Made by a program: the position numbers and the translations under genes
Shown: positions 419-45,171 of the stretch, in pieces
How the letters are laid out: every line of letters begins with the position of its first letter
Numbering within the stretch: position 1 is the first letter of the stretch
The notes under the pieces: generated by a model
Seen by the model: the letters and a program-made list of their open reading frames with translations, nothing else
Database searches by the model: none
Told to the model about the DNA's origin: nothing
Assembly (NCBI GenBank): GCA_002773395.1
Contig: PFBI01000006.1
Location: 242,797 to 306,796 of the forward strand
Source: Candidatus Kaiserbacteria bacterium CG10_big_fil_rev_8_21_14_0_10_47_16
GTDB taxonomy: Bacteria; Patescibacteriota; Minisyncoccia; Phycocordibacterales; UBA918
Direction: 5' to 3'
Length of the DNA stretch: 64,000 nucleotides

Positions 419-454
419 CACTGGGCATTTCCGAACGAGGCGAAACTGTATCGA

Positions 455-2125: not shown

Positions 2126-2251
2126 CAAGCGATGGAGGCGGGCTCACGCCCGCCTCCATCAACCCCTTCCTTTGGACGGGGTTTTTTGTTACTGTGCAGG
2201 CGGAACGTCATTCGACAACAACCCATTCTGGGATTGGAAAGGAAAGTTCTC

Positions 2252-12860: not shown

Positions 12861-13547
12861 TTAGACGATCTTTAGGCTCTCCGCGTTGATGTGGAAGTTG
12901 GTTTGATTTCGACCGCCTTCTTTTGAGCGGCGGAGTGCGACATCGGCATCCTTGAAGATCATCTGCGGATCCTTTTCAGAAGCTGATGCGATTCGTACCC
13001 CGATCGAAATAGTAACTGGAACCCGGACCGTCGTGCCGTGGATAACAAACGCTCGCCCTGCGACCGCTTCGCGAACCTTCTCAGCAGCATTCCGGAATGA
13101 GTTTTTGCGGTGATCGTCGCGCATCAGAATGGCAAACTCTTCGCCTCCCCACCGCGCTACGATTGAGTCGCGGCCGAAAAACTCCGGCCGAAACTTGCTA
13201 ACGACGTACTTGATGACCTCGTCGCCGACGTCATGCCCATGAGTGTCGTTCACCGACTTGAAATAGTCGATGTCGATCAACATGAGACAAAAACGCGTAC
13301 CCATCGACTCTTCCAAGGCATCGTCAAAGACACCTCGATTCCAAAGCCCTGTGAGGACGTCACGATCGGCCCGCTCAAGAAGCTCCGCGTTTTCTTCTTC
13401 CAGAGTCTGAAGCCGGCGAAGAAGTCGTTCCACTTCCATCTCCGCAAAAATGTAGGAGCCGTCCATAGACCGGTCCCCTTCGATCCCCCAAGCACGAAGC
13501 CTGCGGTTAAGATCTTTCTTCTTTTTAGCCACTGTAGTACCCTCCAA
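12861..13547 (-). CDS. GGDEF-domain diguanylate cyclase with an N-terminal coiled coil
   Basis: 'RWGGEEFAILM' (the GGEEF active-site motif) and 'DIDYFKSVNDTHGH'. Confidence 0.85.
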   Translation of the reverse strand: MEGTTVAKKKKDLNRRLRAWGIEGDRSMDGSYIFAEMEVERLLRRLQTLEEENAELLERADRDVLTGLWNRGVFDDALEESMGTRFCLMLIDIDYFKSVNDTHGHDVGDEVIKYVVSKFRPEFFGRDSIVARWGGEEFAILMRDDHRKNSFRNAAEKVREAVAGRAFVIHGTTVRVPVTISIGVRIASASEKDPQMIFKDADVALRRSKEGGRNQTNFHINAESLKIV

Positions 13548-19225: not shown

Positions 19226-19699
19226 TTAGCCTTTGAGGTAGAGTTCAAAGTCTTCAGGAGTTTCCCCTTCTCCCGCTGGTACGAGATTGAGTTCAACCTC
19301 TTGTCCCATGAACCGAGCTTTGATAACCGCCTCAGCACTTGCGTCAAATGAGACCTTGAATCGCTGCGGAGTAATTGCCTGCACACACGTCTCTGACGTG
19401 TTGATGACATTGAAGTCAATAGTCACTTGCTCCGGCATCGATTCTGCTACCGTTGCCTGCCCGTCGAGAAGGTCACACGGTGTTGGCATATCGATTTCCC
19501 CTGCAACCGTATGCGTTCCGTCTATGTAGAAATGCTTTGCATCAATACGCGTAATACCGTATGGATTCTCTGTCGGTGTCTGGTCTTCCACTGGCGCATC
19601 TTCTTTTGCATTGTTCTTATTGACGTACACGAGCACAAAAAGTCCAACGACAATCAGTACAAAAGCAATCCCCCCTACAATCATATTTTTTGGATACAT
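19226..19699 (-). CDS. Membrane-anchored hypothetical protein (157 aa), last gene of the surface locus
   Basis: N-terminal TM 'IVGGIAFVLIVVGLFVLVYV' and a soluble domain with two Cys. Confidence 0.5.
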   Translation of the reverse strand: MYPKNMIVGGIAFVLIVVGLFVLVYVNKNNAKEDAPVEDQTPTENPYGITRIDAKHFYIDGTHTVAGEIDMPTPCDLLDGQATVAESMPEQVTIDFNVINTSETCVQAITPQRFKVSFDASAEAVIKARFMGQEVELNLVPAGEGETPEDFELYLKG

Positions 19700-19738
19700 A
19701 TAGAGTCAATAATAGCGAATATATCTTAGTATACCATA

Positions 19739-20818
19739 TTAGGCTTCTGCCTCGGGTTCTGCTTTTTTAGGAGTTTTCTTGGCCACTTTCCGAACCGCCT
19801 TCTTTGTCGCTTTCTTCTTTGCTACTTTCTTTTTTGCGGGAGCCTTTTTAACGGTTGCTGCTTTTGCTTTCTTTTGGAATTGTTCAATATTTCGATACAA
19901 CTCAGCGCGAAGTGTCGCGAAGTTATCTTCTGCATGTTTATAGGCTGCTGCCATTTCACGAATGTGCGCGTCTACGAGTTTTTGATATCGGCGTCGTTCT
20001 GCACGAATCACAAAGAAGAGACAAGCGATTATAATCATTCCGAGTAAGAGGATGAGGTCGCTCGTTCGCAATGACTGCATTTTGAAAAACGACATACTGA
20101 CACCGTACTGTGCAACCTGTGTTTCAGGAACATTTAATGCTGTCGTCGTCGTACTGGTGTTGCCCGCACCATCGTGCGCAACAACCATAAGCGTATGGCT
20201 CCCCGGAGTAACGGCGTCGAGTAAGTACCCGTTCACAACATCTGCTGCCGATACTGTTGTAAGCGGCGTACCGTCGAGGGTAAGTTCGTAACGTGCTACA
20301 CCAGAACCTGCGTCAGTTGTATTAAATATAAGTACTGGTGATCCGTCAGTATCCTCAATAGCGACCGAGGTAACCTTCGGTGCGGTAACATCGATCTGGA
20401 TACGGTAGTACCCAACTGCGCCCCATCCCGCATCATTCTTAAATTGCACCGCGAGGTACTGCACTCCTTCATGGAGGTCGGTGGCATCAAGGGCCACCTT
20501 ATTCACCAATGAACTAGCAGAACTGCTTGGCGCTTGGTCTGGTGTGTCCATGAGTTCGTAGGCAACCTTTGTCGCGCCAGCGGGAATATTCCACCAAACC
20601 GTCCCTGATTCTCCTTGTTGCCAACCATCTTCTGGACCAAAGTCATCTGAGCAAATAGTTGGGGCTGCAGGTGTGCCGTCGTCTGAAGTAGATTCAAACA
20701 ACACTTCTTCCATGCACGGTGGTGTAGATTCTTGTGCACGTGCAAGTGTCACAAATCCAAACGCGAGGCTTGCGCTGAGAGTGATGCTGAGAATAGTGAT
20801 AGTGTTGCGTAAGAGCAT
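19739..20818 (-). CDS. Type I membrane protein: signal peptide, Ig-like ectodomain, TM, and a Lys/Ala-rich histone-H1-like cytoplasmic tail
   Basis: Signal 'ITLSASLAFGFVTLARAQE', a beta-rich 'TAPKVTSVAIED...GSHTLMVVAHDGAGNTS' segment (Big-like), TM 'LILLLGMIIIACLFFVI', and the tail 'KKAKAATVKKAPAKKKVAKKKATKKAVRKVAKKTPKK'. Confidence 0.55.
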   Translation of the reverse strand: MLLRNTITILSITLSASLAFGFVTLARAQESTPPCMEEVLFESTSDDGTPAAPTICSDDFGPEDGWQQGESGTVWWNIPAGATKVAYELMDTPDQAPSSSASSLVNKVALDATDLHEGVQYLAVQFKNDAGWGAVGYYRIQIDVTAPKVTSVAIEDTDGSPVLIFNTTDAGSGVARYELTLDGTPLTTVSAADVVNGYLLDAVTPGSHTLMVVAHDGAGNTSTTTTALNVPETQVAQYGVSMSFFKMQSLRTSDLILLLGMIIIACLFFVIRAERRRYQKLVDAHIREMAAAYKHAEDNFATLRAELYRNIEQFQKKAKAATVKKAPAKKKVAKKKATKKAVRKVAKKTPKKAEPEAEA

Positions 20819-20953
20819 AAAGAACGGTTACCTCCAACTCCTTTCGTCATCTGTATAAAACAATAATAAACTATTTTCATTTTAAGAACATCGACTTGTA
20901 CACAAAACGCACGATGCGAAGCATCGTGCGTTTTGTTTCTCACACTTTATTTT

Positions 20954-21940
20954 TTAAATAATTGTGACACCTGCCGTTAGTGCAACGTGAATATAAAAGA
21001 GAAGTGCCATCGCTGCCAAGAGTCCCCCACCGTACGCAATCTGAATCGGATGTTGCTTTCGCCACTCCATCACAATTGAAAGAATGAGTGACGCGGCAAC
21101 AAAGAGCGCGAGGAGTGCGTAGAGAATTTGCAACATTGTATTCGGGTTGGTGGCAATGCGGCCAAAGATACCTGCGGCTGCTGTTGGCGCTTCGATACCT
21201 GTTCCGGTGCCAAGCGAGCTGGCTTCTGCGTCGCGAGACGTCGTGGCAAGATCTGAATAGCGTGCAGGAGTATCAGTAGTGTCTCCAAGGGCTTCCGGAG
21301 CTACTGTCTGTGCGGCAGGGATTGCTGTCGCAACAGGCGCTGCGACACTCTCTCCAGCAACTGTCTGTGTTCGAAGTGGTGTTGAGGCTGGTGTGCCGAA
21401 AAACTGAACGACAAATACCGTGTCATATCCTTCGTATGTCCCCTTTGCCGTACCGACACCTATTTCAGTAAAATCGCCGTTTAAAATATTTGCGCGGTGA
21501 CCTGGTGAACTCATCCATGCATCAACCACATCTTCTGAGTCGGTGAAGTACACCGCAAGATTTTCTCCTGCGTGTACGAAGTTGTATCCTGACTCATCAA
21601 ACCAAAACCACGGTGCAACACCTTCAGGAGAGTAGTGCGCGAAGTATCCTTCCTTCGCCATATCGTTTGCTTTTTGCTGTGCAGCCTCATCGAGAACACT
21701 ACTGCGACGCAGTGTACCGACAGCTTCACTGCCCCGCGCTTCGTTTGTGAGGTCGACAATGACTGCAGGCAAAATAGTAGATACCAGCCAGTCAGAACTC
21801 ATCCAGAGAAATGACTGAATGTTCGCGAGCGAAAACGAAATAAGAATCAGTATCGCCATGACGGCAACTGACATTTTCTGCAGAACGTGTGGACGATATT
21901 TGTTTTCTTCACACGGAATGAAGTACGGACGTGGTCGCAT
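20954..21940 (-). CDS. CAP/SCP/PR1-like (YkwD-type) domain protein with TM segments at the N- and C-termini
   Basis: 'GYFAHYSPEG', 'AGENLA' and 'SPGHRANIL' match the CAP-domain motifs of YkwD-like proteins. A C-terminal hydrophobic block follows. Confidence 0.65.
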   Translation of the reverse strand: MRPRPYFIPCEENKYRPHVLQKMSVAVMAILILISFSLANIQSFLWMSSDWLVSTILPAVIVDLTNEARGSEAVGTLRRSSVLDEAAQQKANDMAKEGYFAHYSPEGVAPWFWFDESGYNFVHAGENLAVYFTDSEDVVDAWMSSPGHRANILNGDFTEIGVGTAKGTYEGYDTVFVVQFFGTPASTPLRTQTVAGESVAAPVATAIPAAQTVAPEALGDTTDTPARYSDLATTSRDAEASSLGTGTGIEAPTAAAGIFGRIATNPNTMLQILYALLALFVAASLILSIVMEWRKQHPIQIAYGGGLLAAMALLFYIHVALTAGVTII

Positions 21941-22041
21941 AATGTCGTGAATATACTATGTTTTATTGGGTTTGTCAATGGTTATCCCCACTCTGTGAAA
22001 AGAAAAGACCGGCCTTCGGCCGGTCTTTTCTTTTCGCCCTA

Positions 22042-23472
22042 CTACACACTCGAATCATCAAAGAAGAGGAGAATGATTGATCCGGCTGCAATCACCACAA
22101 ATGGCCATGCAACACAGAGTATCGGCGTAAAGGAGCCGAGAATCAACACCACGATCGATGCTGCTGCGAAGTAGAGGTTGCGAATACGCGGATTCCACAT
22201 CGGAGAGAGTATGTGGTGTCCTCGGTAATCGAGTACAGTCGCCGCAAGCCACGCAAGGACGAAGACCCACCAGTATGCGCCTGCAAAGCCGAAGTAAATA
22301 CCGAGCAGAACCGCGATTGTGTACAATGCATCAAAGATAACGCCACGGGTAAAGATTCGCGCAAAGAGTGCTGGTGGGTGACGAAGCTTGTCGTCAATCA
22401 CCGTCCAGAGGAATGACATTGCTGCCAAAATGAGAAGCCACCACGGTACGCATGCTGCAGTGTCGGTCATTGCCGATTTCACCGCATCAATAATATTCGC
22501 AGCAAGACCTTCTACGAGACCTTCCGGACTTGCAGTACCTTCATCTCCTGTTGAAGTGCTTGCACCAAGTACATCTCCAAACGGAGCCCCGCCGCCAACT
22601 CCAAAGAAGTTACCACCTGTCGGCAACGTGAAGGTAAGCGCAATGCCCACGGTAAAGTCATCACTAATATCTTCACGCGATGCTGGTCGACATTCATAGG
22701 TTCCCGGTGTAAGACCGGTGAGTACCGCAGTGTGATCCACCACTTTCGCAGTATCTTCACTTACTTCAAACTCATAGCCAAAGAAATCAGATTGATCGGT
22801 ATTGAGAACAAACGGACCGTTCGCTGTATTGCCGCAGACAAGGTACGTCGTCGAATTTCTATTTGTATCCCATGAAAGTACGGCCCCACCAACGTCGGTG
22901 TTTACCACATCTACTTGTTCATTAAAGAGAATGAATCGTGAGCTTCCGCCGCCGCCGCCACCTCCTCCCCCGCCGCCGCAGTCAGTTACACATTCGTTAT
23001 CCGTCACTGAATCTCCACCTTCAAATCCAACAATGAGATCAAATCCCATACTGCTCTTTTGATATGCGTTCCCTGTACTACTATCGAGTGACGCAGTAAA
23101 GGTGTAGGTACGAGTTGCCCCCGCACCGAGCGTTCCGAGTGATACCGGCGTTGCGGCAAAGAAATTGATGAACGTATCGTTGAAGTAGCTTGTCGGTGAA
23201 CTATCGGTAATTGAAAGTTCCATCACATCGGCAAGACCATTGTTTGACGCTTTATCGATAGAGACGTAGACGTTCTCTATCTCCGTACCATTGTTCGTCA
23301 CGACGACCGTACGACTCACACTGTCCCCCGGTGTTACGTTACTGTTGCTAAAGAGTGGCGTTTGCTCAAATACCACACTGAGGGTTGCTGCTTCTGCTGC
23401 AACCGGCATGAATGCGAGCGCGAGAAAAGCGAGCGTAAGAAGAATATGCTGTTGTAGTGTGCGCGTTATCAT
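22042..23472 (-). CDS. Sec-secreted beta-rich protein with a (Gly)12 tract and a C-terminal multi-helix membrane domain; its start overlaps the stop of the upstream gene (ATGA)
   Basis: Signal 'LAFLALAFMPVAAEAA', 'CGGGGGGGGGGGSS' and about 6 TM helices in the last 150 aa. The 4 bp overlap with 23469-25187 implies translational coupling. Confidence 0.55.
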   Translation of the reverse strand: MITRTLQQHILLTLAFLALAFMPVAAEAATLSVVFEQTPLFSNSNVTPGDSVSRTVVVTNNGTEIENVYVSIDKASNNGLADVMELSITDSSPTSYFNDTFINFFAATPVSLGTLGAGATRTYTFTASLDSSTGNAYQKSSMGFDLIVGFEGGDSVTDNECVTDCGGGGGGGGGGGSSRFILFNEQVDVVNTDVGGAVLSWDTNRNSTTYLVCGNTANGPFVLNTDQSDFFGYEFEVSEDTAKVVDHTAVLTGLTPGTYECRPASREDISDDFTVGIALTFTLPTGGNFFGVGGGAPFGDVLGASTSTGDEGTASPEGLVEGLAANIIDAVKSAMTDTAACVPWWLLILAAMSFLWTVIDDKLRHPPALFARIFTRGVIFDALYTIAVLLGIYFGFAGAYWWVFVLAWLAATVLDYRGHHILSPMWNPRIRNLYFAAASIVVLILGSFTPILCVAWPFVVIAAGSIILLFFDDSSV

Positions 23473-25187
23473 ACTGTTTCAGTTATATTTTCAACCGGTG
23501 TTTCTGCAGGAACATCTACTGGTTCTTTTGCAGGAGCCTCTTCGACTACCGGTTCCTCTGCAGGTACTTCCTCTTCTTCAGTCACCGGTACCTCTTCTTC
23601 TGCTACAACCTCCTCCTCTGCTGGAGCAGACTCCTCTTCAGTAGAAGTGGTCGTTTCTTCCGTTGGTGTTGTCTCTTCTTCGACAACCGGTGTTTCTTCG
23701 CTCGGAGTCTCAACACTTTCATCAGATGTTACCACCTCTTCTTCAGAGGTTCCGTCAGTCGGAGTTTCCGTTCCTGCATCTTCTTTCGGAGTAGCTCCTG
23801 ACCCAGTGCCTGCACCATTTGTGGAATCTCCGGAATCGTCACTACTTTCAGTTTGTGTAATTCCTTCGTCTACAACCACAATCTCTTCTGGTTTATTAGC
23901 GTACTCATTTTCAGTATCAGCCGTCTCGTCGTCGACTGGCTCTTCTTCTGTTTCCACAACTGGCTGCACCTTATTCAACTCACCAACCGCGACACCGAGT
24001 GCGAGGAGTGCGAGCTCTTCCTTCGTTAAATCATTCTCTGTATTTGGTATACCTGGTGTTGGAATTGGGTCCACCCATGCACCTATCCCGTCAGGAATAC
24101 GTGCGTATGATTTATTGTCAGGGACTGTTGCTCCCGGAGTGCAGTCGATACCGCCGCCACTCGGAACAGAATTATTGCCACCACCCGGTGTTGGCGTGAA
24201 GTAACAATAGTCGTAGTCACTTGTGTACGCGTACGAATCTTGAAGTACATCACTTGGGTTATAAAGCTTCACCGTATCACCAGTGTTATTCAAGATAGGC
24301 TTATTCATGTACACCACGAGGAATCCGTTTGCTGGAATGGTTGTTGTTGCAGCGTGTGTAAGATCAACATGTATGGTATTCCCCGCACCACCTGATGCGT
24401 CAACGACATACCATCCCGTAAGGTCAATTGCTGCTGCACTGAGGTTATAGAGCTCTACCCACTCTCCTTGTGGCATATCCGCGCTGTCGTTCCCGTAGTC
24501 AAAAATAAAGTCTGGATCCCTTGAGTCACAACTGTCATTCTCAGGGTCACTACAGAGTGGTCCGTGGGGACTTGGGAGGAATTCATTGAGTACGACAGGG
24601 TGCGCAACTCCTTCCGGTCCAGAGTCTTGTGTATTAATCGTAATACGAAGTTTTTCAACATCGAAGAATCCTGAGTTTGCTTGAATATCTACTCCATCAA
24701 GCCACGCACTAAAGATAAGATCAAACGTACATTCAGTATCAACAGGCGCTACAAATCCGTCAGTGACGGTAATGAACGAGTTCCAGAGACCGTAATCATT
24801 TGTCGGCGTTGTATCGGTGAGTGCGAGCGGTCCGCTGTATGTTGTTGTTCCATGTGCTGCATTCAATGAGAGTGCGCTGCAAACAGATTCATCTCCGCTT
24901 ACAAACTCATACGAGAGTGCGTATTTTGCGTCAATACTTCCTGAAACCAATGCAACGTTTGTATCAAATTGTACTTCATCGGCAGGTTCATTCGTAATTA
25001 CCCCTTCAAATTCATTCATTGAGAGTTCGATATCAAGGAAGCCTGCACTCCAACTATTGATACCTCCTGTTTCAGTGTCACTAAAAAACGCAAATGCTGC
25101 CGTCGGTGCAATGAGCGTAACGCAGAGAAGCGCCGCAATCGCTGCGCTTAGGTATGTGGTTACTCGTGTATGTAATATATGTTTCAT
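23469..25187 (-). CDS. SipW-cognate signal peptide protein with a lamin-tail domain (LTD) and a long acidic low-complexity C-terminal tail
   Basis: N-terminus 'TAAFAFFSDTETGGINSWSAGFLDIEL' is a variant of the TasA/camelysin-class signal. LTD motifs 'VVLNEFLP...GEWVELYNLSAAAIDLTGWYVVD...IPANGFLVV'. The C-terminal tail of about 170 aa is Glu/Thr/Pro/Val-rich. Confidence 0.7.
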   Translation of the reverse strand: MKHILHTRVTTYLSAAIAALLCVTLIAPTAAFAFFSDTETGGINSWSAGFLDIELSMNEFEGVITNEPADEVQFDTNVALVSGSIDAKYALSYEFVSGDESVCSALSLNAAHGTTTYSGPLALTDTTPTNDYGLWNSFITVTDGFVAPVDTECTFDLIFSAWLDGVDIQANSGFFDVEKLRITINTQDSGPEGVAHPVVLNEFLPSPHGPLCSDPENDSCDSRDPDFIFDYGNDSADMPQGEWVELYNLSAAAIDLTGWYVVDASGGAGNTIHVDLTHAATTTIPANGFLVVYMNKPILNNTGDTVKLYNPSDVLQDSYAYTSDYDYCYFTPTPGGGNNSVPSGGGIDCTPGATVPDNKSYARIPDGIGAWVDPIPTPGIPNTENDLTKEELALLALGVAVGELNKVQPVVETEEEPVDDETADTENEYANKPEEIVVVDEGITQTESSDDSGDSTNGAGTGSGATPKEDAGTETPTDGTSEEEVVTSDESVETPSEETPVVEEETTPTEETTTSTEEESAPAEEEVVAEEEVPVTEEEEVPAEEPVVEEAPAKEPVDVPAETPVENITETV

Positions 25188-25213
25188 AAATGTGATTCTG
25201 CGTTGGGATCCTA

Positions 25214-25759
25214 CTACTCAGAAGCCTCTTCATCTTTTTTGCGAAACTCTCGCACAAGCGTACGTGCTTCATCAATGAATACGAGGGCTGCCGGGAGAAC
25301 AATGATGAGAATGAAGCCGAGTGGCTTCCGCGCGAAATCAATGATGTGCCCAATGTACGGGATATCAAAGATGACTTCGCCCGTGATCTTCGATGCGGGA
25401 GTCGGCGTAATATCAGCCTCCTCGTTGGCATCACCCTTTGTGGTGTACATCAACTCTCCCTTTGTAATAGTTTCCGCAATAATACGGTGTGTCGTCGGAA
25501 CGCGTGTTTTGGTATCTTCACCAAATGTCACCACATCACCAACGCGGTATGAACCTGTCGGATAAATAAGGACAAGCGCACCCGTTTTTATTGCCGGCTC
25601 CATAGAACCCGATTGGACGATTTTGATTGAGTAGTCTCCAAAGAGCGGTACCTTGGTACCAATGAGAAGTACCCCAATCAGAATAATAAATCCAATAAAG
25701 AATCCGTAAGCTATTTTTGAAAAGAGCGCTGTGTTCATTATGTTCTTCAGGATTTCCAT
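25214..25759 (-). CDS. sipW: Signal peptidase I of the SipW/archaeal-ER type
   Basis: The catalytic Ser box 'VQSGSMEP' is identical to the B. subtilis SipW motif. One N-terminal TM helix and a C-terminal TM/basic tail. Confidence 0.8.
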   Translation of the reverse strand: MEILKNIMNTALFSKIAYGFFIGFIILIGVLLIGTKVPLFGDYSIKIVQSGSMEPAIKTGALVLIYPTGSYRVGDVVTFGEDTKTRVPTTHRIIAETITKGELMYTTKGDANEEADITPTPASKITGEVIFDIPYIGHIIDFARKPLGFILIIVLPAALVFIDEARTLVREFRKKDEEASE

Positions 25760-25798
25760 CCTGACCCCAACCCCCGAGTATTCGGGAGTTGTTCGTCA
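25748..25798 (-). repeat. Intercistronic hairpin repeat copy 2 (aaccccgagtattcggg core), candidate attenuator between the TasA-like gene and sipW
   Basis: About 90% identical to 27799-27849. GC stem-loop flanked by 'ggatttccatcc'. Confidence 0.55.
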
Positions 25799-25805
25799 GA
25801 AAAGA

Positions 25806-27761
25806 TTATTCGAAGTCTGAGATTTGACCGTCAAAGTTGATCCAGTCAACGTAACCAGTTTCACCCGCAGGTCCTGGGTGTCCTACACGTATTCCAAACC
25901 ATGAATCGGTTGATCGTGTTTCTGCGTTTGGATAGTTCGCAAGAATGTCCGCCCATGTACGTGGTGTAGAGCCTGGTGTTGTACCTGTGTTATCTACTGC
26001 ACCTGCTGGCCAATTGCCACCAGAAAGTGTCCACATTCCTGCAAGGGCGTCCACTGTTGTCCATGTATTTGCCGTTACACCAGTTGGAACCTGCACAAGA
26101 CGTCGCTGCCATGTATCAGAATTATCGAAGTCGACGTTGAAGTGCAGATACGGAGTCTCGCCTGAAACTGATCCGTCATACATACGGTATGACAGCGTTC
26201 CAATATCAGAGAGCTTCACGTCGTTATAACGATAGGTCGCGATGTTATAACGTGCAGCAGCCTCATGGAGCACCATCTTTGCTGCTCCTGAACCAGCAAC
26301 GGCTTCAAAGTGGTTTTCACCACCTGAACCACTGAACTGGTCGATGCTCATAACTGTATCGTTGGTGTCATTGTAGAAGAACCATGCGCCACTTACTTTT
26401 GCGGCAACTTTGTCACCTGTTTCAAGATCATCTTCGGCAACTTCATTTTCATTGCCTCCACCATTTTGATCATCTCCAATGTGGATGTTCTCACACTGGA
26501 ATGAACCATTGTTTCGAACTTGCTCTGCGTATGCAGTAAGAGACGCGGTGAATGAATCACTCATTGCATCGTTATGCATCGTTGATCCGTCACAACCGAA
26601 TGCATTATCGATGTTTGCACTGATTGTACCCGCACACCACGCAAGACCAACGTACCCTGTTGTCGTTGCGGTGAGATATTGTCCATTGTCTGAATCGAGA
26701 CTTGCGATACTACCGAGGTTTCCGAGTGTTGATTCTCCAAGAGAAGTTTCACCAGTCTCATATACTCCGTCAGCGTCAGTATCAAGCCATGAGAAGAACG
26801 TAATGTAGTCCTGTAGTTCACCGTCTTGATCATCATCACCGTACTTTGCTTCTGGTTCCATGATGTCGTTTTCCGCATCCTCTCCATCATGTGCAATGAG
26901 ACATGTGTATGCATCGTTGTCGAACACGTGAAGTGAGATAACGTTTGTTCCAAGGTCTCCTGGCTTCACATCATTGAAGGTGAAGAATGTTTGATCCGTA
27001 AGATCTGTCTCTTCCCAAAGTTGGCACTGCCAAACGTCTGAAGGAATGCCATCGATATCTTCATTATCGCAGTGAAGTGCTCGTACCGCATCAAGATCAA
27101 AACCGTCAGCGTCACTGTTATGCAGCGTTGGATCAGTCGTGTCAGTAATACGAACGTAGTAGACCAATGGTGCATTTCCGTCGAGGTCAATTTCGATAGT
27201 CCCGTCAAACGTAACTGATGAAGGACTTACGTCAACAGTCGTCCAGTCAGATCCATTTGGACTTACTTCGACTTTTACACTTTCATCAGGATACGCAGGT
27301 GAAGTTACACCTGTTGCTTCGTAGATTCGGAGATCATCTCCTGGACCGTCATCAATTCCGTCTGGGAAGTGGAGTACGATGCTGCCGCCAAATCCAAGAC
27401 TCACGAAGCCTGTTGGCGATACGTCCGGAGTACTTCCAGATGTATCTGCTGGGCCGGTGGCATCGTCTGGATTACTCCGTCCTGCAAGAACCGCATCTCC
27501 TCCCTTTCGCAATCCTTGGTTGAAAGAAGTTACTTCTTCAGCCCAACGATTACAACGCGTTGTACAGTCTTCGCCGTTATATGTTTGCTTGAGGTGGTCA
27601 ACCTTAAGATCGATAGAACCTGCGGTAAAGATGTTACCGGTTGAAGTTTCTGTATCGTTAAAGAACGCACCTGTTGCGCTAATAACGAGGGCGGCAATAG
27701 CCACAAGAAGGGCCGCGCTGAGTAATAATCGTTTTTTCGTTAAAATCTGGTTCATGGTCAT
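25806..27761 (-). CDS. TasA/camelysin-like (peptidase M73 family) fibre protein, 651 aa, with a SipW-cognate signal peptide
   Basis: 'ATGAFFNDTETSTGNIFTAGSIDLKV' is the textbook SipW-cognate signal. The core 'FFTFNDVKPGDLGT' parallels the TasA 'LKPGD' region. Confidence 0.75.
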   Translation of the reverse strand: MTMNQILTKKRLLLSAALLVAIAALVISATGAFFNDTETSTGNIFTAGSIDLKVDHLKQTYNGEDCTTRCNRWAEEVTSFNQGLRKGGDAVLAGRSNPDDATGPADTSGSTPDVSPTGFVSLGFGGSIVLHFPDGIDDGPGDDLRIYEATGVTSPAYPDESVKVEVSPNGSDWTTVDVSPSSVTFDGTIEIDLDGNAPLVYYVRITDTTDPTLHNSDADGFDLDAVRALHCDNEDIDGIPSDVWQCQLWEETDLTDQTFFTFNDVKPGDLGTNVISLHVFDNDAYTCLIAHDGEDAENDIMEPEAKYGDDDQDGELQDYITFFSWLDTDADGVYETGETSLGESTLGNLGSIASLDSDNGQYLTATTTGYVGLAWCAGTISANIDNAFGCDGSTMHNDAMSDSFTASLTAYAEQVRNNGSFQCENIHIGDDQNGGGNENEVAEDDLETGDKVAAKVSGAWFFYNDTNDTVMSIDQFSGSGGENHFEAVAGSGAAKMVLHEAAARYNIATYRYNDVKLSDIGTLSYRMYDGSVSGETPYLHFNVDFDNSDTWQRRLVQVPTGVTANTWTTVDALAGMWTLSGGNWPAGAVDNTGTTPGSTPRTWADILANYPNAETRSTDSWFGIRVGHPGPAGETGYVDWINFDGQISDFE

Positions 27762-27798
27762 AAATAAAGTTTTATTTTTAGATCAAGTAACGTTATTC

Positions 27799-27849
27799 TA
27801 GGATTTACATCCTGACCCCAAACCCCGAATACTCGGGGTTTGTTCGTCA
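27799..27849 (-). repeat. Intercistronic hairpin repeat copy 1 after the first TasA-like gene
   Basis: 'catcctgaccccaaaccccgaatactcggggtttgttcgtca'. Perfect stem aaccccgag/ctcggggtt. Confidence 0.55.
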
Positions 27850-27862
27850 AGAAATAGTCTTG

Positions 27863-29182
27863 TTAGTCTTGTTCTCCGAGATATTCCCCTGCGATTACAT
27901 CACATGAGAATTGCTCATTATTTCGCTTCTGTACTGCGTATGCAGTCAGAGATGCTGTGTATGAGTCACTTTGGGTGATGTTACCCATAGTCTCCCCATC
28001 ACAATCAAAGTCTGATCCCGCAGTCGCTGTAAGCGTACCTGCACACCATGCAACACCTACGTATGCAGTTGTTGTGGCTGAAAGATAGTCAGTGAGTGTA
28101 TCAAGACTTGCGATACTCCCGAGGTTACCGAGTGTAGTCTGCCCGAGAGCAGTTTCACCATTCTCGTAAATACCATTGCCATTATCATTCCAAGTGAATA
28201 CATCAATGTAATCTTGGAGTTCTCCAGCAGTGTTATCGTCACCAAGGTCAGCCTCTGGTTCAGTTACAGAGTTATCTGCATCTACACCATCATGTGCAAT
28301 GAGACATGCGTATGCATCATTGTCATATACGTGAAGTGAGATGACGTCTGTTCCCAGATCTCCTGGCTTCACATCATTGAAGTTGAAGAATGTGTCTCCT
28401 TCTCCAAGATCCTTTTCTTGCCAGAGCTTACATACTTGCTGGAATGATGAGTCTTCTGCACATTCTTCTGCATCACGATCGATATCAAGCTTGAAGAGAA
28501 GACCTGCTGGATTCTGTGTTACAGGATCTCCTGCAAGTGCTTTGTTGCGAACAACAATCTGGAGGGTGTTTTCACCATTCACCATTGCCCCCATGAAAGT
28601 CGTTTCTTCTCCACCCGTTAGCTGAACAGCAGATCCATAGTTAAACTCTGTAGCGAGTTTATCTACAATAGTGACACCGTTAAGGATAACCTTGTATCCG
28701 TTATCTGCCGCGATGGCAAGATCGAGGTCTACGTTCACTGCTGTTCCATTCCATTGGAACTTATTTTCGAACGTATATTCAACATCTCCTACACTGTCAG
28801 CCGCATTTGGAGCAGTTGCCCAAATCCAGATTGCTGGAGCCAAAGCTGCTTCATTCTGCCACGCAGGGTGTGGAGCTGCTACATCAGTTGCAGGAATTGG
28901 GAATGGTCCCTGGTATACAGCAGCCGCATTTGAACCAACGACCTGTGTTGCTGTAGAACTGAATACGTCTACGCTACATGTCTCACAATCAACATCATTG
29001 TACGTTTGTATAAGGTGATCAACTTTGAGGTCGATAGAACCTGCAGTAAAGATGTTGCCTGTTGAAGTTTCTGTATCGTTGAAGAACGCGCCTGTCGCGC
29101 CGATCACGAGTGCTGCAACAAACACCATCATGCCGAGTGCGAGAAGCACTCGTTTGTTTGCAATAAGTGTTGCAATTTTCAT
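27863..29182 (-). CDS. TasA/camelysin-like fibre protein, 439 aa, paralogous to the 651 aa protein; start at ATG 29182
   Basis: N-terminus 'IGATGAFFNDTETSTGNIFTAGSIDLKVDHL' is almost identical to that of 25806-27761. Shared blocks include 'FFNFNDVKPGDLGTDVISLHVYDNDAYACLIAHDG', 'LGNLGSIASLD', 'GVAWCAGT' and 'YTASLTAYA'. Confidence 0.75.
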   Translation of the reverse strand: MKIATLIANKRVLLALGMMVFVAALVIGATGAFFNDTETSTGNIFTAGSIDLKVDHLIQTYNDVDCETCSVDVFSSTATQVVGSNAAAVYQGPFPIPATDVAAPHPAWQNEAALAPAIWIWATAPNAADSVGDVEYTFENKFQWNGTAVNVDLDLAIAADNGYKVILNGVTIVDKLATEFNYGSAVQLTGGEETTFMGAMVNGENTLQIVVRNKALAGDPVTQNPAGLLFKLDIDRDAEECAEDSSFQQVCKLWQEKDLGEGDTFFNFNDVKPGDLGTDVISLHVYDNDAYACLIAHDGVDADNSVTEPEADLGDDNTAGELQDYIDVFTWNDNGNGIYENGETALGQTTLGNLGSIASLDTLTDYLSATTTAYVGVAWCAGTLTATAGSDFDCDGETMGNITQSDSYTASLTAYAVQKRNNEQFSCDVIAGEYLGEQD

Positions 29183-29477
29183 AAAATAATTTGAGTTACT
29201 TGGTAAAGTTTGATTAATAACCACTCCAAAACACACCTAGAAAAGAACTTCCTTGGATGTGTTCATCATCCCACCATTTAGGTACACGGTGGACAAGTGG
29301 AGGAACTTCAATTGGTAACAAAAACGCGCACAATATATTGTGCGCGTTTTTAATTACGTATGTAGTGAAGTCGCCTCCTGTGTCCATCCTGTCTTCTTCA
29401 TGGTGTTCCTAGTATAGACTCACCATAGTAAGCTGCAACCTTGCAGAGATGTAAAATTTGTTTCGTGATGTAAAAAT

Positions 29478-29519
29478 GAATAGCCTGAAAACCGCACGAG
29501 TGCGGTTTTCAGGCTATTC
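29478..29519 (-). terminator. Strong terminator hairpin (perfect 18-20 bp arms) between the LTXXQ gene and the TasA-like operon
   Basis: 'gaatagcctgaaaaccgcac-gag-gtgcggttttcaggctattc'. Confidence 0.7.
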
Positions 29520-29553
29520 TATACATCACTACTTTTGTTCTATGGTGGGTTGT

Positions 29554-30207
29554 TTATTGATCATCTGCTGACGTGTCAGATGATAGGGCGTCATGGCGTG
29601 GAGCCCCGAACACTGGTGGGAGACCGGCGTCACGGAGGAGCTGGTGGGCCCCCCTGTGATCGCCACTTTGGTTGAGTTCGTACGCTTCGAGAAGCGTATT
29701 GAACGACTCTTGGCTTATCATGTCTTTGAATGGAGCATTCTCTGTTGCTGCAACAAAGGCATCATAATCCTTGTTCGCAAGTGCATTACGGATGGCATCA
29801 CGCACTGCCTGATTCCCTTCTCCGCGAGGTCCAATGTGATTTCCAAACGGCGGAATGTCTATTCCCGCATCTGCAAGTACTTGCTTCGCGGCATCATCAT
29901 TACCTTGCTCATGAAGTGTTCGCGCTTCCGTAAGAGCATCCTTCTGCTCCTCGGTGAGATTAGCAAACTCACCCTTGTGCGGCCGCTGTGACATCATGTT
30001 TTTGGTAACGCCTGCGTCTTGAAGTACTTGTTTTGCGCCGTCGAAGTCACCTGATTCCCGGAGATCACGCGCCTCATCGAGGGCGTCTTTCTGGTCATCC
30101 GTGAGATCTTTGAAATCTGCGTAGGCATAGGAGACACCGAGGACTCCAAAGAGGAGAATCGGTATAACCAGCGCGGCAAATTTTTGATCTCGAGTCAGTG
30201 TGTTCAT
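29554..30207 (-). CDS. Secreted repeat protein with three LTXXQ (Spy/CpxP-like) motif repeats
   Basis: N-terminal TM, then three copies of 'LT(D/E)(D/E)QKDAL.EAR.L.E.GD.D.AKQVL.DAG'. Confidence 0.5.
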   Translation of the reverse strand: MNTLTRDQKFAALVIPILLFGVLGVSYAYADFKDLTDDQKDALDEARDLRESGDFDGAKQVLQDAGVTKNMMSQRPHKGEFANLTEEQKDALTEARTLHEQGNDDAAKQVLADAGIDIPPFGNHIGPRGEGNQAVRDAIRNALANKDYDAFVAATENAPFKDMISQESFNTLLEAYELNQSGDHRGAHQLLRDAGLPPVFGAPRHDALSSDTSADDQ

Positions 30208-30226
30208 AACGATTGCATATGGTTAA

Positions 30227-31087
30227 TTATTTTTGCAAGATGCGAACTCGTACGCGCTCGCACTCATTACTACGCATAGCCGGATCTTTTATTTCACTTT
30301 CTGGTCGTACCCTCTCGAGGAATGCGCTCCGACGGCCGAGCATATCGCTAATTGAGTTTTGTTCATGTGGCAGAAATCCTGGCAAGATAATACATGCGTA
30401 GAAGACATCGTCTGATGTTGTTGCTTGGTAGCCAATCACACGAACCTCCTCAAAGCGTGCAAGCGCATCAAGATCCTTCGGACTCAGGCCAGCAGTATAG
30501 AGCGTCCACTTTGTGCCATTGGTGTCAGTGAAGAGGATCGTTTCTTCTGTAAGTGGCGCGCTCGCGCTTCCGATAAGACGACCTTCATCCGCGTCGTCCC
30601 ACAGTTCTTCTTGAAGCCTGACCACTGATGTATGGAACGGGATACGCTCCCCAACCATAACTTCTATCGTTGATCCCGCACCAATGCCGTAGAGTATTGC
30701 TCCTCCCACGAAGCTGCCACCAATACTCATAATCATCACGATGGTGAGTGAGTATCGATACCCTGTCTTCGTGTGACGAAGGTTGAAGTACCCAAAGAGT
30801 ACCGTGCCCGCAAGAATGCCGATCCAAAGATACGGCAGTACCGTCACAATGAATGTGATCATGTTACGGTGCGTTGCCTCATAGAACTCCCATCCTGCGT
30901 GCTCTGTCGCAAAGGCGGAGGCCGCGAGCGCTGCGCTTCCGATAAGGACCGCCCCGCCCCACAGAGTCCAGAACGTAACGTCGCGCGAGACGAATACCCA
31001 TCGCGCTCGCGGCGAAACAGCATCATCACTGATACGCATCATGACTCTCTGCTTTATATCTTCTGTTGTGTGTTGTGTGCTATTCAT
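30227..31087 (-). CDS. Putative membrane-bound anti-sigma factor (overlaps the ECF sigma gene by 8 bp)
   Basis: Position and 8 bp overlap with the sigma gene, 4-5 TM helices, and a C-terminal extracytoplasmic domain. No recognisable ZAS motif. Confidence 0.45.
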   Translation of the reverse strand: MNSTQHTTEDIKQRVMMRISDDAVSPRARWVFVSRDVTFWTLWGGAVLIGSAALAASAFATEHAGWEFYEATHRNMITFIVTVLPYLWIGILAGTVLFGYFNLRHTKTGYRYSLTIVMIMSIGGSFVGGAILYGIGAGSTIEVMVGERIPFHTSVVRLQEELWDDADEGRLIGSASAPLTEETILFTDTNGTKWTLYTAGLSPKDLDALARFEEVRVIGYQATTSDDVFYACIILPGFLPHEQNSISDMLGRRSAFLERVRPESEIKDPAMRSNECERVRVRILQK

Positions 31088-31658
31088 ACGCTGGATGTTC
31101 TTTGAGTTCTTTGCGGAGGCGGCCTTTGGCTCTGTGGAGGAGCGTGGCCACCGAACCTATGGGTATCTTTAAAATGTCGGAGATCTCGTCATATTCCTTA
31201 TGTTCAAAAAACCGCAAGATGACAACGTCTCGGTATTTATTATCAAGATGACTCACCGCTCTCCCGACAACCGCAGCGTCGAGCGCAGCATCAAAGAGTA
31301 TTTCGCTCCCTTTCTCGGTACTCGCAACAAACGTGAGGATATCCTCACTGTCTGACACAAGGTGTCCTTCGGGACGCACTCGCTTCTTTCGAAACGAGTT
31401 TATGGCTTCATTGTGGGCAATACGATACATCCATGAAGAAAACGACAACGCCGTATCAAATTCATTGAGATTCCGGTACGCTTTTATAAAAATTTCTTGG
31501 AGAACGTCTGCAACATCTTCCTCATCACGCACGCCAAGTCGGCGTACGTATCGTGCGAGCTTTGCTTCATACCGTTCGATGAGTAGGCCAAAGAACTCAC
31601 GCTGATTACGCGCCATTTCCACCAGCTCCTCGTCTGTTTTTATCCCACCAACAGGCAT
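31080..31658 (-). CDS. ECF (group IV) RNA polymerase sigma factor
   Basis: Region 2 'VLQEIFIKAYRNLNEFD...SFSSWMYRIAHNEAIN' and region 4 'EISDILKIPIGSVATLLHRAKGRLRKEL'. Confidence 0.85.
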   Translation of the reverse strand: MPVGGIKTDEELVEMARNQREFFGLLIERYEAKLARYVRRLGVRDEEDVADVLQEIFIKAYRNLNEFDTALSFSSWMYRIAHNEAINSFRKKRVRPEGHLVSDSEDILTFVASTEKGSEILFDAALDAAVVGRAVSHLDNKYRDVVILRFFEHKEYDEISDILKIPIGSVATLLHRAKGRLRKELKEHPAYE

Positions 31659-31726
31659 ATAAGCTATCTATAGTTACTACGCATGATACGCTTATTTCTT
31701 TCACTCTGCATGCTACAATCTCTCGT

Positions 31727-39945: not shown

Positions 39946-41586
39946 TTACTGAAAAGCTGCTGCAATAGAGGCGAAGGCTTCTTCGGTTGTGGTGATGATG
40001 AGTGTATTTTGATTCAGGAAACCGTAGGTAATGTGCGCAGTAAGCGCTTCATCATAGAGTACACGAACGTTATGTCCTGATACCGTTCGATCGATGAAGC
40101 GTATGCCCGCAGGCTGTCCAAAGAGTGGCGAGAGATCTTGGCTCATGAATGATTCCCACTCAAGCATATTTGCGAATACCGTATCGAAGTTGTTTGTCTT
40201 CAATACCATGTACGGATGTACGCCCGATGTCTTGATACCACCGATCATCATGCGATCATCGAATGCTCTGACGAGACTACTCTGCACATGCGGGTTCAGC
40301 ACCGCAAAGAAATCTCCAGACGTCCATGCAATTGGATTTGCGGTACCGGGAGCAGTGAACACTATCTGACTCTCTGCGCCTGACTGCTGCGCAATAGCAT
40401 TTTGAATACCCCCGAGAAGCGCTGCGCGATCACTCGCGAGAGGAACTGAGAGCGATGAGTCGGTCGCAAAGAATCCAGCAACTGGTTGTGGTTGCGCATT
40501 CTGTCCTTGTGAACGAATGAACGTGTACCCTGCTGTTCCCGCTCCCCCAAGAAGCACAATGGCAAGAAGCACAATGAGGATCTTCCCAATAGAATAATTT
40601 TCTATAAAGCGCGCAAACGCACTCGGACCTTTGGGGACGCTTGGTATTTCTTTCTTCTCTTCGATGATTTTCTTTGGAATCTCAGGTTCAGGAATCGGTT
40701 CTGGCTCTTCTACGATCTCTGGTTCGGGAGTAGGTGGCGGGATAACGGGTTCTGGAACCGGCTCTGGTATTGGTTCCGGAATTGGTTCAGGAATCGGTTC
40801 TGGCTCTTTGACTGGTTGTGGCACAGGGATTGGTTCAGGCTCTGGTATTGAAATAGGTTCTGGTACCGGAGTTGGTACTGGTGCAGGCGCCTGCGTAGGA
40901 GTCTGCGCTTGCGGCTCTGGTCGTGGCGCCACTACCGGAGGTTTCGCTTCTACCCCTGGAGTGCGCTCCGTTATCGTACGCGCAATAAGATCTGGTTTTT
41001 CTTTTATAACTTTTTCCTCACGTCCGCCGAGGAAGTGTGACCATGATGGGCTTTCTTCTTCTCTGTCCTTTTTCTGAATAACAAACGGTTTCCCGGTCAC
41101 TCGTTCTGCATCTTGCTGAAGTGTACGAATACTCGCAAGTACCGCCGATCGATCGTTCGGTTCGGGAGTGAGTTTGTTGGTCACCGCTTCCGTGACTATC
41201 TGTACCCGCTCAGTCCCTGGAGCAACGGTTGGCACTTCCTTTTTCTTTGGGATCATCGGTGTGACGACTGCTTTTGTGGTATCACCTACGATTTCTGAGG
41301 CAGCATCCCTCATTGCCCCAAAGATAGAGCGCCGTGAACGTTGCTTGTCAGTCACAATCACTGCATCGTCCTCAGAGCTTTTCTCTGAAATATTCACGGT
41401 ACTGTCTGCTCCCGAAAGGAGTGAGTTCTTCTCCTCAGCATGGTGCATCGGAGGATTGGCGGGGGCACTGCTCGAAAACGCTGCCTTTGCTTTTGCAGCG
41501 TCAGTTGCCATTGTGTGCACTCCGTTATTCGGTTTCGATGATGACTTTTCGTCCATACAATATGTATAGTATCGCATACGCGACAT
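39946..41586 (-). CDS. Proline-rich (PEPIPEPIPE tandem repeat) membrane protein
   Basis: 'PEPISIPEPEPIPVPQPVKEPEPIPEPIPEPIPEPVPEPV' encoded by 9/18 bp tandem DNA repeats at about 40690-40900, followed by a TM helix and a C-terminal domain. Confidence 0.5.
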   Translation of the reverse strand: MSRMRYYTYCMDEKSSSKPNNGVHTMATDAAKAKAAFSSSAPANPPMHHAEEKNSLLSGADSTVNISEKSSEDDAVIVTDKQRSRRSIFGAMRDAASEIVGDTTKAVVTPMIPKKKEVPTVAPGTERVQIVTEAVTNKLTPEPNDRSAVLASIRTLQQDAERVTGKPFVIQKKDREEESPSWSHFLGGREEKVIKEKPDLIARTITERTPGVEAKPPVVAPRPEPQAQTPTQAPAPVPTPVPEPISIPEPEPIPVPQPVKEPEPIPEPIPEPIPEPVPEPVIPPPTPEPEIVEEPEPIPEPEIPKKIIEEKKEIPSVPKGPSAFARFIENYSIGKILIVLLAIVLLGGAGTAGYTFIRSQGQNAQPQPVAGFFATDSSLSVPLASDRAALLGGIQNAIAQQSGAESQIVFTAPGTANPIAWTSGDFFAVLNPHVQSSLVRAFDDRMMIGGIKTSGVHPYMVLKTNNFDTVFANMLEWESFMSQDLSPLFGQPAGIRFIDRTVSGHNVRVLYDEALTAHITYGFLNQNTLIITTTEEAFASIAAAFQ

Positions 41587-45035: not shown

Positions 45036-45171
45036 AGAGTATATCGTTTGAATTATTAAAAAGTGAAACAGCGCTTCACGCTTCGACTATGAAAATGGGT
45101 GCTGTTCCACTCGTACTATAACATAATGCGCGTCCCCGAAGGGAACGCGCATTATGTCCTGCATGAAGATA

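Follow-up and report, generated by a model that had tools for sequence, protein, structure and literature searches.

A putative TasA/SipW-type fibre cassette and a neighbouring, separable ECF sigma factor module in a Kaiserbacteria contig

Eleven consecutive minus-strand genes (g1 to g11, Table 1) in a stretch of 64,000 nucleotides from Candidatus Kaiserbacteria bacterium CG10_big_fil_rev_8_21_14_0_10_47_16 (contig PFBI01000006.1, positions 242,797 to 306,796; the whole stretch is hereafter the window) raise the question of whether a sigma factor of the extracytoplasmic function (ECF) type governs the adjacent genes for TasA-like proteins and a SipW-type signal peptidase, or is simply their neighbour. 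A first-pass annotation had read the eleven genes as one coherent, ECF-controlled surface fibre system. Our analysis points instead to two neighbouring, separable modules, of which g4–g8 would constitute a TasA/SipW-type donor-strand fibre cassette and g1–g3 an ECF module, a reading that we consider probable. All eleven open reading frames (ORFs) are real and lie where they had been annotated, the start of g4 being corrected to the ATG at 29182 instead of the GTG at 29236 on the basis of a family alignment and public gene calls. Terminators and promoters divide the run, which therefore comprises at least four transcription units (g1–g3, g4–g8, g9 and g10–g11) rather than one operon, and co-orientation alone is weak evidence because the window's larger ORFs lie on the minus strand in about 72% of cases. 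The identical sequence is also present in the Candidatus Parcubacteria metagenome-assembled genome GCA_009991995.1 (contig JAACWM010000003.1) and in several metagenome assemblies, and housekeeping genes (KsgA, UvrD, ribosomal proteins, EF-Tu/EF-G, PNPase, FtsH and DnaB) surround the locus, which is therefore not an obvious mobile island. To our knowledge, Patescibacteria are mostly uncultured, and host attachment among them is known only for the type IV pili of Saccharibacteria.

The description of g4 and g5 as TasA/camelysin-like paralogs served by a SipW-type peptidase had been made dependent on two hidden Markov models (HMMs), one for the SipW-cognate signal and one for the signal peptidase, both of which match above their cutoffs. 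Scores against TIGR04088 (cutoff 19 bits) are 26.6 bits for g4 and 25.9 bits for g5, the SipW gene g6 follows directly downstream, and within the 64 kb the SipW-type motif is confined to g4, g5 and g7. The peptidase itself scores 103 bits against TIGR02228 (cutoff 51.85), with residues S50, S52, H91, D110 and D116 kept in at least 95% of 27 homologs, which corresponds to a Ser/His/Asp arrangement and not to a Ser/Lys dyad; the bacterial-type signal peptidase model reaches only 26 bits, under its cutoff of 47. Against the Bacillus SipW equivalog NF046067 a score of 111 bits is obtained (cutoff 190), g6 being the same type of enzyme as Bacillus SipW and not an ortholog by the NCBI criterion. The g4 family comprises more than 1,293 homologs at 50–66% identity. 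Some of them bear the NCBI name 'TasA family protein' and others that of 'SipW-dependent-type signal peptide-containing protein', the organisms being Paceibacterota, Kaiserbacteria, Nealsonbacteria, Zambryskibacteria and Minisyncoccota. In our classification g4 and g5 belong to the TasA family, and g6 is a peptidase of the SipW type.

Both subunits carry domain insertions, a feature that had gone unnoticed in the first-pass annotation. An insert-less homolog of 263 amino acids from another locus (L046, 7498–8289) matches PF12389 over profile positions 11–193 of 196 (30.4 bits, cutoff 22.5) and aligns to residues 3–65 and 261–427 of g4 and to residues 3–54 and 253–423 of g5 (E ~1e-12 to 1e-14), with about 190 residues in g4 and g5 replacing about 5 residues of the plain TasA-like protein. 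Because this protein aligns on both sides of the inserts, the sequence comparison identifies g4 and g5 as products of a domain insertion that falls cleanly behind the first strand; the whole β-sandwich core of both proteins is homologous to the TasA/camelysin family. In the predicted model the g4 insert adopts the fold of a carbohydrate-binding module (CBM). That of g5 is known by sequence only, with F5/8 type C matches that stay below threshold, and the C-terminal domain of g5 (about 220 residues) has no significant family match. The modelled g4 core matches the fibre form of TasA; since TasA appears only at rank 59 in the list of fold matches, support from the fold is of moderate strength and relies on the bridging sequence comparison. 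Searches of Protein Data Bank (PDB) sequences with g4, g5, g7 and the g8 profile returned no meaningful match.

The part of the subunits that is best conserved is the N-terminal strand of the mature protein. The two paralogs are 69% identical over the N-terminal 68 residues and 59% over the core, the inserts being unalignable. A run of 29 residues, ATGAFFNDTETSTGNIFTAGSIDLKVDHL, which spans the SipW site and the N-terminal strand, is identical in both, and the 11 synonymous differences found within its 87 nucleotides indicate, as far as sequence comparison can tell, selection on the peptide and not recent gene conversion. Mean conservation across 48 family members amounts to 0.88 for residues 31–61, as compared to 0.51 for the signal and 0.60–0.63 for the two domains, and this conserved segment has a predicted local distance difference test score (pLDDT) of 40–49 in the g4 monomer model. 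Also, seven cysteines are invariant in the g4 family (C66, C69, C241, C251, C293, C380 and C427) and C394 is almost invariant, which suggests that as many as four disulfides may form. The N-terminal strand also has a conserved Asn, which together with the invariant Lys272 (DVKPGD) could make up an isopeptide lock resembling that of Clostridium perfringens BsaA.

Two further proteins complete the cassette. The third SipW-type substrate, g7, had been described as a SipW-cognate protein with a lamin-tail domain and an acidic tail. The latter two features are borne out, as PF00932 scores 54.3 bits (cutoff 34.3) at residues 236–322 and residues 400–572 contain 33% Asp+Glu, while the match to TIGR04088, in which profile positions 1–31 of 34 are aligned, reaches 16.8 bits and falls short of the cutoff of 19. 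In most loci the protein at this position starts with A(Y/F)(Y/F)xDxE..N.F.AG.LDF and continues into a variable body, often with a lamin-tail domain, which by analogy would follow the TapA pattern of a subunit-like strand placed on a different body. No homology of g7 or g8 to TapA was detected in family scans, in PDB sequence searches with g7 and the g8 profile or by Foldseek with the g8 model, and g7, compared by sequence and not by fold, is likened to TapA as a functional analogy only.

In g8, the anticipated Sec signal, polytopic C-terminus and start overlapping the g7 stop were all found. The signal is followed by a DUF11-like β-sandwich, a poly-Gly linker, an FN3-like domain with YECRPASR, a disordered linker and five C-terminal helices, the latter as predicted in the AlphaFold2 model (pLDDT 70). 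The family alignment evidences a motif PLF..N..PGDS in the N-terminal β-sandwich and an almost invariant YECRPASR; most relatives end in a single transmembrane segment, the polytopic helical membrane domain being restricted to a subclade. This polytopic tail was looked for as a separate gene in the loci with a single segment and was not found. In an exhaustive profile search the family numbered 3,561 cluster representatives when E≤1e-3 was required and 584 when the limit was set to E≤1e-30. A second word-index search, seeded with the g8 alignment, brought in a single additional protein, and cluster look-ups yielded no taxonomy for the more distant relatives. No Pfam or NCBIfam model matches the family at cutoff, the closest to the N-domain being DUF11 (PF01345), with 21.8–22.9 bits against a cutoff of 24.6 and sub-threshold matches in 5 of 11 family members. 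By Foldseek the best match of the model is an Enterococcus WxLIP (E 4.5e-9), followed by pilins, RbmA and transglutaminase barrels. The idea that the N-domain is a strand-less TasA core was dropped, given a hhalign probability of 1% and a sub-threshold PF12389 match (18 bits) in one of 11 members.

We have annotated 52 loci from genome and metagenome collections and three more from context look-ups (L059–L061), and gene neighbourhoods were counted in the 23 non-duplicate loci having at least 5 kb upstream of the g8 homolog; all loci with a named organism belong to Patescibacteria. TasA-like genes lie within 6.5 kb upstream on the same strand in 22 of the 23 loci and SipW lies upstream in 20, so that the association of subunits and peptidase extends to many Patescibacteria, and in almost every locus the gene in the place of g7 adjoins or overlaps the g8 homolog (-4 to +10 nucleotides in most). 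A pair of ECF and anti-sigma genes accompanies the cassette in only two of the 23 (L006 and L042), the window being additional, and L059–L061 contributed no further ECF-linked locus. In 5 of 21 loci, a CAP gene follows the g8 homolog downstream at a distance of no more than 6 kb. From these counts, and from the fact that g10 and g11 are rarely or never syntenic, the conserved unit is concluded to be one to three TasA-like subunits, SipW, a g7-like and a g8-like gene. The decorations of the subunits differ from locus to locus, comprising weak β-helix/NosD matches, ice-binding-like PF11999 domains and plain short forms. Among the cassette relatives there are g4 homologs of 660–670 residues, some of which end in an ice-binding-like PF11999 domain (proteins P0016, P0022 and P0092). 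In L006 (3352–7667) the anti-sigma gene is followed by genes for a 545-residue protein, a sortase and a protein that is TasA-like and weakly matches Beta_helix (PF13229), a sortase gene also lies downstream of the g8 homolog in L060 (6213–6851), and in L059 (1134–1601) a type IV pilin-like gene with an N_methyl motif directly precedes the TasA-like gene.

Turning to the ECF module, the sigma factor gene had been correctly recognised: g1 scores 98 bits against TIGR02937 (cutoff 42.9) and matches Pfam regions 2 and 4 only, the make-up of an ECF sigma factor, its closest named models being SigW-like and under the equivalog cutoff (108 vs 209). The membrane protein g2 stands as an anti-sigma candidate on account of its position, the 8-nucleotide overlap with g1, its membrane topology with three hydrophobic segments and the homologs that directly follow the ECF genes of L006 (34% identity) and L042, although it matches no Pfam or NCBIfam family and thus no anti-sigma domain. 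For g3, which had been taken for a Spy/CpxP-like LTXXQ protein, the motifs are real and the family membership is not supported. A pattern LTxxQK..A..L...G....A...L..AG occurs in three copies and two literal LTxxQ motifs (LTDDQ and LTEEQ) open repeated helical units, but no LTXXQ/Spy/CpxP HMM matches even at E≤10, the matches obtained being a 25-residue one to DUF2379 that barely exceeds its cutoff (22.2 vs 21.1 bits) and sub-threshold ones to other helical repeats. The likeness to Spy/CpxP survives as a functional analogy, that of an exported helical protein that would be driven by a stress sigma factor, and not as membership.

The SigW consensus is TGAAAC-N16-CGTA, and the candidate promoters of g1 and g3, of the form TGAAA(N)-N16-CGTA, presumably fit it. 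This motif recurs upstream of the ECF genes of L006 and L042, and in L042 it also stands, at 272–296, before an unlinked g3 homolog that is located 3.5 kb away behind unrelated genes. When about 128,000 window positions are ranked with a weight matrix made from these three external sites only, the g3 site comes second and the g1 site fourth. In addition, the window contains 9 copies of the bare pattern GAAA-N17-CGTA where 2.4 are expected, a count reached in none of 100 shuffles. A five-site matrix, which includes the two window sites beside those from L042 (two) and L006, gives scores of 24–26 for the g1 and g3 sites and 1.1 for the best candidate before g4. The motif is absent before g4 and before g9. 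The g4 candidate, TGAAGT-N16-CGTGTA, was discarded as a pattern at chance level (3 vs 3.3 expected in the window) that is also unconserved in L006 and L042. As the motif stands before both g1 and g3 and nothing comparable before g4, the recognisable regulon of the sigma factor consists of g1 itself and g3, the latter being a likely target. Other good matches to TGAAA-N17-CGTA are found in the window at 5151–5187, 1689–1725, 45086–45122 and 19524–19560 (all on the plus strand), some of the matches being antisense to genes (ftsH, g11).

The division between the modules is also apparent from the transcription signals. The strong terminator that had been noted after g3 is confirmed, the 66-nucleotide stretch folded around 29478–29519 having -41.3 kcal/mol. 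Beyond it, g4–g8 are tightly packed, with gaps of 101, 46 and 26 nucleotides and then a 4-nucleotide overlap. The stem-loops after g4 and g5 are almost identical, sharing GACGAACAA..CCCGA.TA.TCGGGG.TTGGGGTCAGG, and the former retains a relic of the junction sequence, from which it follows that the duplication giving g4 and g5 took the g5–g6 junction along. Upstream of g4 lies a leader whose hairpin has -20.3 kcal/mol and whose CACCATGA motif is confined to the ECF-linked loci (3 of 3, against none of about 30 other upstream regions). Its counterparts are at 5907 to about 5990 in L006 and at 6155 to about 6240 in L042, the shared parts being a possible promoter TTGC..N16-17..TAnnCT, CACCATGAA, an ORF of 9–18 codons and a hairpin with a U-run. 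Comparison with Rfam gave only sub-threshold matches for the hairpin and no family at cutoff. The leader could be an attenuator or a small RNA, and its restriction to three ECF-linked loci keeps a regulatory link between the ECF module and the fibre genes open.

How such a cassette might operate can be proposed by reference to solved relatives. In Bacillus subtilis TasA, mature residues 28–38, the first after SipW cleavage, serve as the donor strand by which the next subunit is completed, and TapA, which has a similar N-terminal strand, nucleates the assembly (PMC9674648, PMC10151520); BsaA oligomers in C. perfringens are membrane-anchored (PMC11580942). By homology, g4, g5 and g7 are exported and g6 is the dedicated peptidase for their special signal peptides. 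Cleavage would expose the highly conserved strand (A)FFNDTETSTGNIFTAGSIDL, which, as in TasA, would enter the β-sandwich core of the next subunit and lead to polymerisation of g4 and g5, and because the N-terminal strands of the two are identical they may co-polymerise. The resulting fibre would display many lectin-like modules and could serve as a multivalent adhesin toward glycans of a host or partner. Since g7 joins this N-terminal strand to another body, it would have a TapA-like nucleating or terminal role, and the translationally coupled g8 would keep the assembly on the membrane. Of the stem-loops that follow g4 and g5, one may suppose that they favour subunit mRNA and damp the translation of SipW. 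The other module combines the ECF sigma factor, its candidate membrane anti-sigma factor and the exported helical-repeat protein, with a SigW-like promoter (TGAAA-N17-CGTA) before g1 and g3, and the comparison of promoter motifs gave no sign of g1 driving the fibre operon.

This proposal has to be weighed against the idea of a single envelope-stress regulon, in which the ECF sigma factor, once released from g2, would switch on the fibre operon along with the CAP, Ig-like and anchored proteins. In its favour, the ECF and anti-sigma genes lie directly upstream of the cassette and co-oriented with it in three divergent loci (window, L006 and L042), the leader with CACCATGAA, short ORF and hairpin is found in those three only and could reflect ECF-tied regulation, and the CAP gene recurs nearby. 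Yet the ECF pair is missing from all but two of the 23 other loci, the -41 kcal/mol terminator stands behind g3, the ECF motif is lacking both before g4 (1.1 vs 24–26 with the matrix that includes the two window sites) and before g9, whose promoter is sigma-70-like, and homologs of g10 and g11 occur in one other locus and in none, respectively. We thus regard ECF control of the fibre, as originally claimed, as distinctly unlikely. A different objection would be that g4, g5 and g7 are SipW-processed, lectin-like proteins that do not polymerise and that g8 keeps on the cell as single adhesins or as a coat. Indeed, the big inserted and appended domains could hinder TasA-like packing, the g4 monomer model is a complete two-domain protein, the direct PF12389 match is limited to the N-terminus and the C. 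perfringens paralog BsaB does not form long oligomers (PMC11580942). We find this rather unlikely, because conservation peaks on the mature N-terminal strand and not on the globular domains, the strand is identical in two paralogs under purifying selection whereas a signal-peptidase site alone would require just a few residues, and the core matches the fibre form of TasA. That the TasA-like proteins are camelysin-type (M73) proteases or antimicrobial factors and not structural is suggested by the very name of PF12389, 'camelysin metallo-endopeptidase', but is highly improbable, as no HExxH-type zinc motif can be read by eye in g4 or g5, the Pfam match spans the signal and first strand only and the solved relatives are fibre subunits.

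Several points do weigh against a fibre cassette separate from the ECF module. PF12389 covers only profile positions 12–49 in g4 (24.5 vs 22.5 bits) and stays under that cutoff in g5 (17.3 bits), where the match is likewise N-terminal (signal and first strand), and the C-terminal halves of g4 and g5 alone gave no PF12389 match. Polymerisation of g4 and g5 is derived from homology and a monomer model, and carbohydrate binding by the insert would be a guess at the level of the fold. For g8 there is no detectable relation to the TasA family by hhalign (probability 1%), the anchoring role is drawn from architecture and synteny, and the roles of g7 and g8 could be swapped or different. Finally, the ECF promoter model comprises five sites, and ECF control may reach g4–g8 by way of a divergent promoter or of the conserved leader.

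Several known systems come close to the cassette. Like B. subtilis tapA-sipW-tasA, it has a dedicated SipW of the archaeal/endoplasmic reticulum (ER) type beside TIGR04088-type substrates, a conserved mature N-terminal strand (residues 28–38 in TasA), an accessory protein with a similar N-terminus on another body (TapA there, g7 here) and tightly coupled accessory genes. It differs in gene order, in having two subunit paralogs, each with an insert of about 190 residues after the first strand, in the lack of a detectable TapA sequence homolog and of SinR-type regulators in the window, in its Parcubacterium host and in the extra membrane-anchored g8, for which no Bacillus counterpart was found. 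With C. perfringens sipW-bsaA-bsaB-bsaC it shares SipW, two TasA-like paralogs, a third secreted protein with an adhesion-type domain (VWA there, the lamin-tail domain here), putative oligomers that would be membrane-anchored and not wall-linked, and, in some relatives (L006, L060), a nearby sortase gene. The clostridial system has neither inserted CBM-like domains nor a g8-type anchor gene, and the BsaA strand is locked by an Asn-Glu-Lys isopeptide. In Firmicutes, TasA-family operons have been noted that contain several paralogs, a signal peptidase, a sortase and genes with adhesin domains (PMC11580942). Archaeal bundling pili (AbpA/AbpB, Pyrobaculum) and other TasA-like fibres of archaea likewise have a TasA-fold subunit and a donor-strand polymer, such as we propose for the window, and a larger accessory protein proposed as assembly initiator and adhesin (PMC9245690), but the bundling-pilus operon lacks a dedicated signal peptidase and their sequences are far more divergent, whereas the window proteins fall in the bacterial PF12389/TIGR04088 set.

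The remaining likenesses are looser. The WxLIP of Enterococcus/Lactobacillus WxL loci (9i25/9i1y) is the best structural match for the two tandem β-sandwich domains of g8; template-modelling scores are low (0.18–0.30), there is neither sequence similarity nor a WxL-domain partner in the locus, and the modelled likeness would be one of fold and architecture only. Bacillus SigW-RsiW modules resemble g1–g2 in that SigW-like models fit g1 best, and differ in that g1 stays below their equivalog cutoffs and g2 lacks an anti-sigma family match; similarly, g3 resembles Spy/CpxP as an exported helical-repeat protein with LTxxQ motifs behind a SigW-like promoter and differs in lacking the family match. 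The first-pass annotation had regarded the combination as undescribed, which does not hold for its core: a Pfam survey of 2022 lists Patescibacteria among the bearers of TasA (PF12389) homologs (PMC9245690), and NCBI already uses the name 'TasA family protein'. In the literature that we searched only PF12389 in Patescibacteria is mentioned, and the cassette in the candidate phyla radiation, the g7 and g8 families and the domain-inserted subunits are not described.

Beyond the two modules, the CAP assignment of g9 is well supported (PF00188, 73.1 vs 21.1 bits), the YkwD subfamily model scoring 98 bits under a cutoff of 171; with a promoter and a terminator of its own, g9 is a recurrent but separately transcribed neighbour of the cassette. 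As to g10, the histone-H1-like character of the tail is evident, residues 300–359 being 30% Lys and 23% Ala (AKKKVAKKKATKKAVRKVAKK), but the supposed Ig-like domains give sub-threshold matches only; its single homolog, in L042, lies about 4 kb from the cassette. No g11 homolog was found in the other loci examined, and two terminators follow g11. Both g10 and g11 are probably bystanders, their membership in the locus being doubtful. The divergent ORF beside g1 is a possible accessory gene; L006 (E 6e-10) and L012 (E 4e-5) have weak homologs of it, which likewise lie divergently beside the cassette. Elsewhere in the window, a stand-alone GGDEF diguanylate cyclase gene (12861–13547, minus strand), about 6 kb downstream of the locus, could bear on the regulation of surface or attachment functions. 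Sizeable ORFs at 2132–3328 (plus strand, 398 residues) and 39946–41586 (minus strand, 546 residues) have no Pfam match. A tRNA-Ile gene with anticodon TAT (UAU) is present at 345–419 (plus strand), which is uncommon since in most bacteria AUA is read by a CAU tRNA modified with lysidine.

Table 1. Features of the locus, in window coordinates.
Feature	Coordinates	Strand	Remarks
g1, ECF-family sigma factor, 192 aa	31080..31658	-	Sigma70_r2 and r4_2 domains; TIGR02937
g2, membrane anti-sigma candidate, 286 aa	30227..31087	-	3 hydrophobic segments; C-terminal domain of ~150 aa
g3, exported or anchored helical-repeat protein, 217 aa	29554..30207	-	N-terminal hydrophobic segment and three repeats
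ECF-type promoter candidate before g1	31678..31702	-	AGTGAAAG-N16-CGTAGTAA
Second ECF-type promoter candidate	30271..30295	-	AGTGAAAT-N16-CGTAGTAA; within g2 3' end, 64 nt before g3 start
Intrinsic terminator closing g1–g3 unit	29478..29519	-	19-bp stem, 9 GC pairs, T-run
Leader before g4	29316..29405	-	CACCATGAA, 15-codon ORF (MKKTGWTQEATSLHT), then hairpin with U-run
g4, putative TasA-family fibre subunit with inserted CBM-like domain, 439 aa	27863..29182	-	
Stem-loop after g4	27806..27856	-	-28.4 kcal/mol, no U-run; duplicate of g5/g6 junction with relic AGGATGTAA
g5, paralogous TasA-family subunit (putative), other insert, ~220-aa C-terminal extension, 651 aa	25806..27761	-	
Stem-loop after g5	25761..25799	-	-24.7 kcal/mol; pairs G-rich ribosome-binding stretch of g6
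g6, SipW-type (archaeal/ER-type) signal peptidase I, 181 aa	25214..25759	-	TIGR02228
g7, third SipW-type substrate, 572 aa	23469..25187	-	Donor-strand-like N-terminus, N-domain, lamin-tail domain, ~170-aa acidic tail
g8, putative membrane-anchored protein, 476 aa	22042..23472	-	ATGA overlap with g7
Intrinsic terminator closing g4–g8 operon	21995..22037	-	-31.1 kcal/mol, A and U runs on flanks
Sigma-70-like promoter of g9	21950..21978	-	TTGACA-17-TATATT, 11/12 matches
g9, CAP/YkwD-domain protein, 328 aa	20954..21940	-	Membrane segments at both ends; own promoter and terminator
g10, type I membrane protein, 359 aa	19739..20818	-	Sub-threshold Ig-like matches; cytoplasmic Lys/Ala-rich tail
g11, N-terminally anchored protein, 157 aa	19226..19699	-	No family match
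Divergent ORF, 158 aa	31727..32203	+	Transmembrane segment at residues 4–22; no family match

The principle underlying the proposed fibre is already known and the evidence is computational throughout. With 584 cluster representatives of g8 at E≤1e-30 and more than 1,293 subunit homologs, the cassette is common though uncharacterised, and it bears on host attachment in Parcubacteria; its subunits are unusually conserved for surface proteins, with 50–66% identity among homologs assigned by NCBI to Kaiserbacteria, Nealsonbacteria, Zambryskibacteria and Paceibacterota. The analysis also illustrates that adjacency does not make an ECF module the regulator of a fibre, the likely targets of the sigma factor being nameable here. 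If fibres are indeed built, the donor-strand principle of TasA would reach a third major lineage, the TasA core would be seen to tolerate insertion of whole domains, which would be useful for fibre engineering, and g4, g5, g7 and g8 would be concrete candidates for host-binding studies. Tentatively, and with more doubt than confidence, one may go further and picture a hitherto unrecognised class of appendage by which Parcubacteria/Paceibacteria would adhere. It would be a donor-strand fibre of the TasA type whose subunits each carry a swappable inserted binding module (CBM-like in g4, and weak β-helix/NosD matches or ice-binding-like PF11999 in relatives), with the strand-donating lamin-tail protein g7 as starter and g8 as membrane anchor, neither having a Bacillus or Clostridium counterpart. 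Were this true, such fibres could be part of the means by which ultra-small episymbionts recognise and hold on to the surface of their hosts, alongside type IV pili.

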